DNA of 39,499 nucleotides, taken from IMG/VR virus record IMGVR_UViG_3300029923_000051, positions 1 to 39,499 of that record; one strand, 5' to 3'. The translations under genes and the position numbers were made by a program. Source of the stretch: a virus. Numbering within the stretch: the stretch's first letter is position 1; each line of letters begins with the position of its first letter. The notes beneath the pieces are model-generated. The model saw nothing but the letters and a program-made list of their open reading frames with translations, had not been told where the DNA came from and did not search any database. This document shows, one piece after another, positions 2 through 1,697 of this stretch.

Positions 2-148
2 AATGTTTTAAAAACTGGTACGACATATATTGCAGTAAGATTTAACACAGAAGTTCATTGCATATCTTCAATGTCTTATACTCCACAAAGATTTATCACA
101 TTAAAAGAATATAGAAAACAGAAACTAATAAGAATAGAAGATGTATGA
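2..148 (+). CDS. partial (5'-truncated) unit of the staircase mini-gene family. C-term RFITLKEYRKQKLIRIEDV.
   Basis: Open frame from the window edge to TGA at 146-148. The C-terminus aligns with the other units. The next unit's ATG (141) overlaps it as ATGTATGA. Confidence 0.5.
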   Translation, partial: NVLKTGTTYIAVRFNTEVHCISSMSYTPQRFITLKEYRKQKLIRIEDV

Positions 149-386
149 TTATATCGCAATAAATCAAAACGATAGATTTTATAATGGTGATAAAATAGTT
201 TGTGTTGATAATGACAGAGTTGGAGAATTAAAAATTAATAAAATTTATATTGCTTGTATTGGATTTGAAATGATTAGAATAGTAAATTATAAAGATTATC
301 CTATTGTTTATAAATCATATAGATTCATTCTATTGAAAGAATATAGAAAGCAGAAAATTAATCAATTGAAGAAATGTTCAAAGTAG
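141..386 (+). CDS. staircase mini-gene family member (81 aa; GDKIVCVD...KCSK)
   Basis: ORF with conserved GD[KR]VVC N-motif and C-term RFILLKEYRKQKINQLKKCSK. Its stop overlaps the next start. Confidence 0.65.
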   Translation: MYDYIAINQNDRFYNGDKIVCVDNDRVGELKINKIYIACIGFEMIRIVNYKDYPIVYKSYRFILLKEYRKQKINQLKKCSK

Positions 387-592
387 GAGATAAAGTTGCT
401 TGTATAAATGGCTTAGTTAAGAATACATATGTAAACAGTCTAAAAATAAATAATATTTATACAATATCAGAGATTCGTGGTATATTGGTTAGATTACATG
501 AAACTAATATATGCTACAACTCTAATAGATTTATGTCATTACAAGCTTATAGAAGAGTTAAACTTAATCAGTTGATGAAATGTTCAAAGTAG
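374..592 (+). CDS. staircase mini-gene family member (72 aa, MFKVGDKVACIN...MKCSK)
   Basis: The junction gaaATGTTCAAAGTAG encodes KCSK* of the upstream unit and MFKVG of this unit in shifted frames. Confidence 0.7.
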   Translation: MFKVGDKVACINGLVKNTYVNSLKINNIYTISEIRGILVRLHETNICYNSNRFMSLQAYRRVKLNQLMKCSK

Positions 593-804
593 GAGAAAGA
601 GTTGTTTGTGTGAATGATAAGTCAATAATTCCAAATAAAATTCTATTTATAAAAAAAAATAATATTTATATTATATCGGAAAATATAAATGATTCAGTTA
701 AATTGATTGAAGATAATATATATCTTTATTCAGAGACAAGATTTGTATCATTAAAAGCTCACAGGAGAATTAAACTTAATCAGTTAATGAAATGTTCAAA
801 GTAG
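580..804 (+). CDS. staircase mini-gene family member (74 aa)
   Basis: MFKVGERVVCVN...RFVSLKAHRRIKLNQLMKCSK. Same overlapping junction. Confidence 0.7.
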   Translation: MFKVGERVVCVNDKSIIPNKILFIKKNNIYIISENINDSVKLIEDNIYLYSETRFVSLKAHRRIKLNQLMKCSK

Positions 805-1010
805 GAGATAGAGTTGTTTGTATAAATGATATACCATTTAATAGAATGAAACCTTTACTTAATATCTATAAATATAAAGTCTATACTGTAAAAAGTAGTG
901 ATGATGATTTTACCGAGTTATTTGAAACACATAATTTTTATAATTCTAATAGATTTGTTCTATTATCAAAAATAAGAAAACAAAAACTTAATAAATTAAA
1001 CATATTATAA
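792..1010 (+). CDS. staircase mini-gene family member (72 aa)
   Basis: MFKVGDRVVCIN...NSNRFVLLSKIRKQKLNKLNIL. TAATG overlap with the next unit. Confidence 0.7.
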   Translation: MFKVGDRVVCINDIPFNRMKPLLNIYKYKVYTVKSSDDDFTELFETHNFYNSNRFVLLSKIRKQKLNKLNIL

Positions 1011-1246
1011 TGGTTAAAATAGGAGATAGAGTAGTTTGTGTAAATCCAGGTAAAATTAATTCTGAACACTTAAAAATAAAATGTTCATATTTAGTATTGT
1101 TTGTTATTGATTTTCATGCATCAGGATTAGATGGAGTTAAAATACGTATAGATAATGATACTAAAATTTTTTATAAGATGAAAAGATTTATATTATTAAA
1201 AGAACAAAGAAGAGATAGATTAAAACAATTGGAATGTTCAAAGTAG
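1010..1246 (+). CDS. staircase mini-gene family member (78 aa)
   Basis: MVKIGDRVVCVN...KRFILLKEQRRDRLKQLECSK. Confidence 0.7.
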   Translation: MVKIGDRVVCVNPGKINSEHLKIKCSYLVLFVIDFHASGLDGVKIRIDNDTKIFYKMKRFILLKEQRRDRLKQLECSK

Positions 1247-1479
1247 GAGATAAATTAGTTTGTATTGATATTGATAATCTGGTAAATATTGATAAATCAT
1301 TATCATTAAATTATACTGAAATATACATAGTAACTAAATGCGATAGTATTAGAGTTGGAAGTGTAGAACTGAATAGTGTTGAAATAAATTGTCGTGATTT
1401 TCTTTATGACCGTAATAGATTTGTATTATTATCTGAACAAAGAAGAAATAAATTAAAACAATTGGAATGTTCAAAGTAG
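1234..1479 (+). CDS. staircase mini-gene family member (81 aa)
   Basis: MFKVGDKLVCID...NRFVLLSEQRRNKLKQLECSK. Confidence 0.7.
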   Translation: MFKVGDKLVCIDIDNLVNIDKSLSLNYTEIYIVTKCDSIRVGSVELNSVEINCRDFLYDRNRFVLLSEQRRNKLKQLECSK

Positions 1480-1697
1480 GAGATAAAATTCAATGTATAA
1501 ATAATAAGAATTTGAATCATCTTAATAAATTAAATCAATTGAAATATTTTTGTGTTTATACTGTAACAGATTCTATGATAGTAGGAATTAAAATAAATGA
1601 TCTTAATTGCATTTATTCTGAAACCAGATTTTTATTATTATCTGAACAAAGAAGAAATAAATTAAATAAAATAAATAATTATGAATATAATATGTAA
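1467..1697 (+). CDS. staircase mini-gene family member (76 aa), last unit
   Basis: MFKVGDKIQCIN...TRFLLLSEQRRNKLNKINNYEYNM. Confidence 0.65.
   Translation: MFKVGDKIQCINNKNLNHLNKLNQLKYFCVYTVTDSMIVGIKINDLNCIYSETRFLLLSEQRRNKLNKINNYEYNM

Follow-up and report, generated by a model that had tools for sequence, protein, structure and literature searches.

Multigene families laid out as tandem arrays of paralogues, comparable to the one described here, occur in large phages and giant viruses. The described systems closest to this locus are of two kinds. First, in termination-reinitiation pairs, co-directional genes share an out-of-frame stop/start overlap (ATGA, TAATG, or 8 nucleotides [nt]), and both short overlaps and reinitiation are documented (PMC6728339, PMC10666635); overlaps of this sort can originate through the loss of a stop codon, after which translation runs on to the next in-frame stop within the downstream gene (PMC10666635). 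Second, the SUKH and other immunity-protein arrays of bacteria and DNA viruses consist of head-to-tail paralogues with a constant scaffold and divergent surfaces (PMC3113570, PMC3482391). Here, we analyzed a 39,499-nt stretch of viral DNA (positions 1 to 39,499 of IMG/VR record IMGVR_UViG_3300029923_000051; hereafter, the window), whose source is a large, AT-rich (~22% guanine plus cytosine, GC), T4-like phage. The window opens with an array of small paralogous genes that overlap out of frame, and we hold with good confidence that its anatomy and origin are those of duplicated genes for SH3/KOW-like domains that inherited their overlapping junctions.

The array occupies positions 2-1697 of the window, on the plus strand, as seven complete paralogous genes of 72-81 amino acids (aa) and one that the window edge cuts. 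Unit 0 (2-148; hmmsearch 4e-14) retains the C-terminal 48 codons and the TGA stop of a 74-aa member, the full gene of which lies at 1638-1862 of contig L003. It is followed by unit 1 (141-386, 81 aa, with an atypical N-terminal extension, MYDYIAINQNDRFYNGDKIVCV), unit 2 (374-592, 72 aa), unit 3 (580-804, 74 aa), unit 4 (792-1010, 72 aa, ending in KLNIL-TAA), unit 5 (1010-1246, 78 aa, beginning with MVKIGD), unit 6 (1234-1479, 81 aa), and unit 7 (1467-1697, 76 aa), the final unit, with the tail NNYEYNM. Pairwise identity among the units is 25-55%, and all align as one family. The initial annotation, which placed eight paralogues of 68-81 aa here, was right about the run of genes, with the corrections that seven are complete, that these measure 72-81 aa, and that position 2 is not where the array begins. 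Specifically, contig L022, which derives from a 162.8-kb contig and is identical to the window, places the upstream end of the array 1753 nt before the window (window position 1 corresponds to L022 9861). There, the entire array spans 8108-11557 and comprises 14 genes with 15 domains, including one in-frame two-domain gene of 156 aa; the window region is the 3' half of this array.

Seven open reading frames (ORFs) of at least 68 aa with an ATG start cover 1602 of the 1697 nt, while 2000 first-order Markov simulations yielded either none (1970 runs) or one (30 runs); at ~22% GC, ORFs this long would very rarely arise by chance. In many samples, contigs match the window at 99.8-100% identity, with their reading frames intact. 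Tandem Repeats Finder did not detect the array because the nucleotide sequences of its units have diverged too far; apart from the junctions, the repeat is therefore old at the DNA level. Many independent metagenome contigs (ends of L001-L007 and L023-L028) break inside the array, as the window does at its position 1, which points to assembly breaks caused by the repeats or to strain-level differences in copy number.

The junctions account for the geometry of the array. Five of them contain an invariant 18-mer, AATGTTCAAAGTAGGAGA (373-390, 579-596, 791-808, 1233-1250, and 1466-1483), that encodes K-C-S-K-stop in the upstream gene and M-F-K-V-G-D in the downstream gene; the KCSK-stop/MFKVG junction itself, ATGTTCAAAGTAG, lies at 374, 580, 792, 1234, and 1467. 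Along the array, from unit 0 onward, the overlaps are 8, 13, 13, 13, 1, 13, 13, and 17 nt. The dual-coding junction first reported from this sequence is hence present five times, with exceptions at 141, where ATGTATGA gives the 8-nt overlap of units 0 and 1, at 1010, where TAATG gives the 1-nt overlap of units 4 and 5, and after the last unit, where unit 7 overlaps an unrelated DUF1660 gene by 17 nt. Likewise, the reported rotation of frames applies from unit 1 onward, with each step leading to the -1 frame, while the junction at 141 steps the opposite way. The start-to-start periods (233, 206, 212, 218, 224, and 233) are all 2 mod 3, as had been noted, and this follows arithmetically from an inherited overlap of 1, 7, 13, or 25 nt.

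A comparison of junctions across five arrays from four or more phage lineages showed how such overlaps are built. In the clade to which the window belongs, the downstream ATG always falls within the upstream codons AAA/GAA-TGY, and the upstream frame ends at the first stop met when the 5' codons of the downstream gene are read out of frame. Where the downstream gene begins ATG TTA A, the upstream tail is KC-stop and the overlap is 7 nt (TAA, from TTA-A); where it begins ATG TTC AAA GTA G, the tail is KCSK-stop and the overlap is 13 nt (TAG, from GTA-G); and where it begins ATG TTC AAA CCA GGA GAT AAA GTA G, the tail is KCSNQEIK-stop and the overlap is 25 nt (again TAG, from GTA-G). The units upstream of the window have the 7-nt form (GAA AAA TGT TAA / ATG TTA AAA, i.e., KC-stop/MLK), and one substitution, TTA to TTC, which replaces Leu by Phe in the downstream gene, is enough to turn a 7-nt junction into a 13-nt one. 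When frame shadows were simulated, the resulting tails matched those observed. The tails CSK, CLK, and CSNQEIK are therefore the next gene's MFK(V/P)GDK codons read in another frame, without independent conservation.

This arrangement extends well beyond the window. Among 129 single-domain family representatives drawn from a profile search of the whole library, 75 (58%) end in a shadow tail (C, CSK, CLK, CS.QEIK, and the like), while many of the remaining representatives end in NE or NDE. A second junction type, ATGAATAA, found in contigs L016 and L018, has an 8-nt overlap and the opposite frame step and yields the NE/NDE ending, so these tails, too, would appear to be frame shadows. Taken together, the two groups of tails make the overlapped arrangement the norm for the family. 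Further, TAG terminates five of the seven array genes and only 4 of the 71 other genes in the window (the others use TAA in 53 cases and TGA in 14), an excess that fits a stop supplied passively by the downstream gene. The staircase of frames is thus a property of the repeat junction, which would be copied with every duplicated gene, and its geometry is explained by known processes, namely a stop/start overlap out of frame and unequal exchange that duplicates genes in tandem.

The protein domain explains why the ends of the units are conserved while their middles diverge. AlphaFold2 (AF2) models of 374-589 (unit 2; predicted local distance difference test, pLDDT, 89.3) and 1234-1476 (unit 6; pLDDT 87.9) share the same topology: five antiparallel strands form a barrel, a 3-10 turn leads into the fifth of them, and a helix of 15 residues comes after it. 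In unit 6, the additional residues make the beta2-beta3 hairpin longer. The small beta-barrel anticipated in the initial annotation is borne out by both predictions, which display the five strands, the long loop after strand 1, and the 3-10 turn of SH3-like and KOW small barrels; as modeled, the units are shown to be an SH3/KOW-like five-strand barrel plus a conserved, basic, amphipathic C-terminal helix. Foldseek searches of the PDB returned SH3 domains at probabilities of up to 1.0, with E values of just ~0.05, and fold matches in BFVD were uncharacterized phage proteins, including Acinetobacter Friunavirus proteins with N-terminal 56 residues that are 32-34% identical. Across the 129 single-domain representatives, with unit 2 as the reference, Y29, F53, and R60 are invariant; C10, K63, and G5 occur in at least 95% of sequences; and D6, F2, R52, and L56 occur in at least 90%. 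Entropy exceeds 3.5 bits at residues 14-22 and 32-38, which also hold nearly all of the length variation, with insertions falling after residues 17 and 37. The diversity is thus concentrated in mid-unit, as expected from the first reading of the sequence, and the segments hypervariable in both sequence and length are the loop after strand 1 and the beta2-beta3 hairpin. In the models, the N-terminal FKVGDKVVCI corresponds to strand 1 and the C-terminal RF..L.EYRK.KL to the 3-10 turn, strand 5, and the helix, so that conserved ends and a variable middle translate into the barrel core and helix versus the loops.

Translational coupling or crossing-over had been put forward as the force that conserves the unit ends. 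Crossing-over does act on the array (see below), but neither process is needed for most of this conservation, because the barrel motifs are kept in relatives that carry 2-12 domain copies in a single reading frame without overlap. A stronger version of the idea, that the ends owe their similarity mainly to gene conversion or to unequal exchange of recent date and not to selection on the protein, strikes us as unlikely. It would account for the junction-spanning 74-nt segments 1181-1254 and 1414-1487 being 90.5% identical while their cores have diverged, and for neighboring junctions sharing subtypes (QLMKCSK twice, QLECSK twice), and exchange at this place is seen in contig L027. Nevertheless, distant members, other phages, and in-frame fusions devoid of junctions all retain the barrel end motifs, and under the strong codon bias of an AT-rich genome, identical peptides are nearly identical in DNA anyway. 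Gene conversion may contribute to the similarity of the junctions, but it is not required.

Evidence for the duplication process itself comes from L027, which matches the window at 1-1457 and then at 1626-2580 and lacks 209 nt, or one unit. The deletion removes the core of unit 7 and joins the unit 6 core to the unit 7 tail in a chimera of 84 aa. Units 6 and 7 share 34 identical nt in their helix-coding part (1424-1457 = 1633-1666, plus strand), and the crossover lies there; a copy-number breakpoint at homologous positions of neighbors is what unequal crossing-over produces, as had been suspected for this array, and it is seen in L027 alone. Two single-nucleotide polymorphisms elsewhere in the contig argue for a real strain variant. 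We also compared the array with that of a related phage (contigs L008-L012), which has the same vault-like neighbor gene and a syntenic array of ~10 units. Some units are one-to-one orthologues (73%, 60%, and 52% identity; unit 5 corresponds to L010 1609-1845 at 54%), while others are lineage-specific expansions in which neighbors are the closest relatives. The L027 deletion, the neighbor-biased similarity, the two-domain gene, and the 2-12-repeat chains fit a gain and loss of copies by unequal exchange, and we infer that arrays grow and shrink by unequal homologous recombination between neighboring paralogues. Because exchange at homologous positions inside units would pass the junction on to each new unit, the residue class mod 3 would remain constant.

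The family is large, and it is almost wholly viral. A profile search recovered 4336 cluster representatives (50% identity) at E <= 1e-3, almost all of them from phage contigs, and members are present in 208-256 kb viral genomes of IMG/VR, while a scan of 185,579 bacterial and archaeal species genomes gave a single partial match, so that these essentially lack the family. The single-chain relatives match profile positions 5 to ~60 only and lack the C-terminal helix of the single-domain genes. Two such chains of 6-12 copies, P0046 (residues 1-340) and P0051 (residues 1-170 and 900-1217), share an unannotated N-terminal region with a motif like W(N)xxYGGRAWGxI, for which no explanatory match was found in Pfam or NCBIfam. 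In another related jumbo phage (L013/L031/L033; IMGVR_UViG_3300029982_000010, 221,902 bp), at least two separate arrays lie ~20 kb apart, one of which adjoins an RNA ligase and a CTP_transf_like gene. Within the window, a solitary diverged member (8259-8522, minus strand, 87 aa, FNRGDKVVCIN...NFIKLKKIRELKLLKL; hmmsearch 3e-11) is located outside the array among unrelated small genes.

Searches of curated resources place the units near several known families but inside none. Sequence searches of Pfam, NCBIfam, and the PDB gave no significant family for the units, the best PDB match being mitochondrial IF-2 at E = 0.3, through a chance FxVGDxIVC. The KOW domain (Pfam PF00467) was not matched by the seven units or by 50 aligned members, even at E <= 1, and the window units produced no match at the gathering thresholds of DUF6501, DUF7244, or Phage_ProQ_C_like. 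DUF6501 was touched by one of the 50 aligned members (E = 0.011), and for all three families only multi-repeat relatives pass, on their summed score (e.g., P0051, with 47.6 bits and no single significant stretch), so any kinship with them is distant. Five units matched phrog_14634 ('DNA binding protein', 245 aa) at E values of 1.8e-5 to 2e-2, at profile positions 4-60 only, and tblastn showed 34-36% identity, both in keeping with the BFVD matches; by sequence, the units share the N-terminal domain of this family but are not members of it. Window positions 1-6000 had no megablast match among INPHARED phages, and our literature search on DUF6501 and on phage arrays of SH3-like paralogues found nothing relevant.

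How the units are translated can be approached from the same junctions. The array would be transcribed as part of one long same-strand unit that ends at a hairpin at 2246-2283, and each gene could then be started through reinitiation by the ribosome that finished the preceding gene, which would have stopped 1-13 nt past the ATG. Alternatively, and just as plausibly, ribosomes would initiate directly on the RNA, which is A-rich and unstructured. The co-directional genes with stop/start overlaps have the layout of termination-reinitiation pairs, and translational coupling of the units is plausible on these grounds. The junction RNA showed no significant structure (folding z -0.27 to +1.1). A Shine-Dalgarno (SD)-like tetramer precedes only 2 of the 73 long ORFs of the window, which suggests a host with SD-independent initiation, Bacteroidota-like. 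We considered the AGGAG in GTAGGAGAT as an SD site and rejected it; given the near-absence of SD motifs in this phage, it is best read as part of the Val-Gly-Asp codons.

The same junctions bear on a different way of expressing the array, serial programmed -1 frameshifting, in which the Lys-tRNA would slip from AAG to AAA before the stop (a 'shifty stop') and continue into VGDK, giving nested multi-domain chains (the relevant junction sequence is CAAAGTAG, and its altered counterpart is CAAGGTAG). The geometry is suggestive, in that the upstream frame of the 13-nt junction ends in TCA AAG TAG, all 13-nt and 25-nt junctions have A_AAG immediately before TAG, and each step from unit 1 onward is to the -1 frame; in-frame multi-repeat relatives also exist, and the array itself holds a natural two-domain fusion. 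Yet the junctions contain neither an X_XXY_YYZ heptamer nor the stimulatory RNA structure expected of frameshift sites, and the slippery site is absent from the 7-nt (TGT TAA), 8-nt, and 1-nt junctions. Further, after a slip at a 25-nt junction, the chain would enter the next barrel partway through strand 1; each unit has an ATG of its own, always at the same place; the frame steps of the L016/L018 clade run the opposite way; and the A_AAG_TAG context simply results from the Lys-Val codons AAA GTA G. We consider this mechanism extremely improbable. The related proposal that only some ribosomes slip at the five A_AAG_TAG junctions, so that one mRNA yields single domains together with a ladder of linked multi-domain chains, seems to us just as remote; were it true, the slipping array would be a split-gene counterpart of the 6-12-repeat chains, with domain valency set by frameshift efficiency. 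It is somewhat less improbable, though still unlikely, that the domains are made separately and then come together, by way of their conserved C-terminal helices, as a hetero-oligomer with a fixed stoichiometry.

Selection was measured on orthologues; the synonymous sites of paralogues are saturated at 25-55% aa identity. Nei-Gojobori ratios of nonsynonymous to synonymous substitution rates (dN/dS) for five orthologous pairs against the related phage were 0.26, 0.35, 0.61, 0.69, and 0.71, estimates that are noisy because each draws on just 35-50 synonymous sites, and the ratio for the DUF1660 neighbor was 0.34. The initial annotation had taken a dN/dS near 1 throughout, or disrupted frames in orthologues, as signs of decay; the ratios found are below 1, and the frames are kept in the compared orthologues, while two units of the related phage are frame-disrupted. 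Together with the seven long ORFs, against none or one in simulations, and the two AF2 models, these orthologues establish that the array units are genuine genes. Non-coding or decaying repeats are ruled out by the ORF simulations and the orthologue ratios. A recoding of TAG or TGA was also considered and rejected, as ORFs of 612-819 aa are intact under table 11.

The frame-disrupted units raise the possibility of a broken repeat protein, i.e., a former single multi-domain gene that was split by frameshift mutations and is now decaying. Multi-repeat single-chain relatives do exist, some orthologue pairs have ratios of 0.6-0.7, and the disruptions are 1-nt insertions that truncate the helix. 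Against this, the ATG occupies the same domain position in every unit, the same types of junction are found in several phage lineages and can be deduced from the tails of 58% of the representatives, and the C-terminal helix is conserved in single-domain genes and absent from fused repeats. The long ORFs in 22% GC DNA would be very unlikely without selection, and strains from many samples retain intact frames at 99.8-100% identity. Such a history is highly improbable in our judgment, and duplicated, intact genes with inherited junctions are the better account.

Several points nonetheless count against parts of that account. First, three of the five orthologous pairs have high dN/dS ratios (0.61-0.71), from 35-50 synonymous sites in an AT-rich genome. 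Second, 1-nt A-run insertions in 2 of the 10 units of the related phage remove the C-terminal helix and leave the barrel ORF intact; they lie at L010 1960-2060 and 2170-2275 and are identical in all five contigs, L008-L012. The first creates AGG AAA AAA AAC TAG, a classical A_AAA_AAC slippery heptamer right before the stop, at which the -1 frame restores the full KLERIVECSK tail. Hence, these insertions may reflect recoding, decay, or a dispensable helix, and some copies may be degenerating. Third, L027 is a single short-read contig and could be an assembly artefact. Fourth, efficient reinitiation occurs mainly at overlaps of 1, 4, or 8 nt (PMC10666635), so that overlaps of 13-25 nt may couple poorly, and coupling, operon structure, and timing are all deduced from sequence. 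Finally, the sole functional label is the PHROG term 'DNA binding protein', which belongs to a 245-aa family that shares just its N-terminal 60 residues with the units.

In its genomic context, the array is part of an extended run of small genes on one strand, and gp32-like and T4_Y16D matches lie upstream. Downstream, it is followed by the co-directional DUF1660/phrog_2670 gene (1681-1893, plus strand, 70 aa), which is unrelated to the family and whose position is kept in the related phage, and by a phrog_8428 gene (1898-2245, plus strand, 115 aa), the last of the run. The hairpin at 2246-2283, with a 17-bp stem and flanking A and T runs, is terminator-like on the plus strand; as the sole site of this kind downstream of the array, it likely marks the end of the transcription unit. 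The arrays of the family lie among small early-type genes and genes for nucleic-acid enzymes (gp32-like, RNA ligase, helicase, and NYN nuclease).

Other features of the window are of separate interest. On the minus strand at 2910-5369, an 819-aa protein has major-vault-protein domains (MVP_shoulder at 9e-28, plus Vault_3 and Band_7); in the phage database, it matches best the uncultured megaphages LR756500, LR756501, and LR756503 (462-735 kb), with 50-53% identity over 97-99% of its length, and it is unusual to see a vault-like shell protein conserved among phages of this size. LR756500 and LR756501 share this gene and have no member of the array family within 12 kb of it. A second, much larger family of paralogues, 105-250 aa long and including LRR_4 proteins, occupies ~13600-31500 on both strands (e.g., 14372-18081, 18452-19980, 20382-26636, and 29060-31507), with gaps of -4 to +2 nt. 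About 30 of its genes are preceded by a near-identical AAATTTAAC(A/T)TATAA(T)ATG, a motif that belongs to the preceding gene as its conserved C-terminal 'KFN[IL]-stop'. Lastly, at 32034-38280 on the minus strand, three large genes, two with the T4 gp9/gp10 N-terminal domain and one with a Fib_succ_major domain, have a near-identical upstream sequence, TTAATATATAGAAATAAAAATATTAATG, that may be a late promoter or leader.

With regard to function, the units can be hypothesized, only tentatively, to be early-expressed binding modules in which a constant scaffold presents variable loops to host or nucleic-acid targets, on a logic like that of tandem immunity-protein arrays (PMC3113570, PMC3482391); binding of RNA or DNA, as by KOW domains, is an alternative of equal standing. 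If the units are indeed early variable-loop binders, they would be candidates for host-takeover or counter-defense factors. Beyond function, the array serves as a worked example of an out-of-frame stop/start overlap that became fixed within a duplicating unit. It also shows that a "conserved" C-terminal tail can be purely a frame shadow, which calls for caution in the annotation of motifs and domains in small phage proteins. Further, it exposes a large phage-specific family without a curated model that forms arrays and multi-repeat fusions in jumbo phages and megaphages.

Compared with known systems, the array combines familiar elements in an unfamiliar way. Among small beta-barrels (uL24, NusG/Spt5 KOW, the Xrn1 SH3-like domain, and the Hpy99I N-terminal domain), it matches in predicted fold, while the Pfam KOW/SH3 models remain unmatched at threshold; the G..KG half of the KOW motif after strand 1 is replaced by a variable loop, which is the most variable part of the domain, and a basic C-terminal helix is added. 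The phrog_14634 proteins of Acinetobacter Friunavirus phages have N-terminal 60 residues homologous to the array domain but are, unlike the array units, single-copy, about three times longer, and found outside arrays, and their 'DNA binding' label is an annotation. With the SUKH and other immunity-protein arrays, it has in common the head-to-tail paralogues, the constant scaffold with divergent surfaces, the gain and loss of copies with varying copy number, and the coexistence of single-domain and fused forms (PMC3113570, PMC3482391). It differs from them in its fold (SH3/KOW-like barrel plus helix), in that no toxin or defense partner was identified for the phage array, and in its overlap-locked staircase of frames, which is not a described feature of immunity-protein arrays. 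Finally, it resembles termination-reinitiation pairs in its co-directional, out-of-frame stop/start overlaps (PMC6728339, PMC10666635), which look as though a stop was lost and reading went on to the next one inside the downstream gene, as PMC10666635 describes. In contrast to those pairs, its dominant overlaps are 7, 13, and 25 nt, not 1, 4, or 8 nt, and the same junction, being part of the duplicated unit, recurs as many as 14 times in succession. The elements that are new relative to all of these systems are an uncurated, phage-specific family of SH3/KOW-like domains and the shadow-tail effect that its junctions produce.

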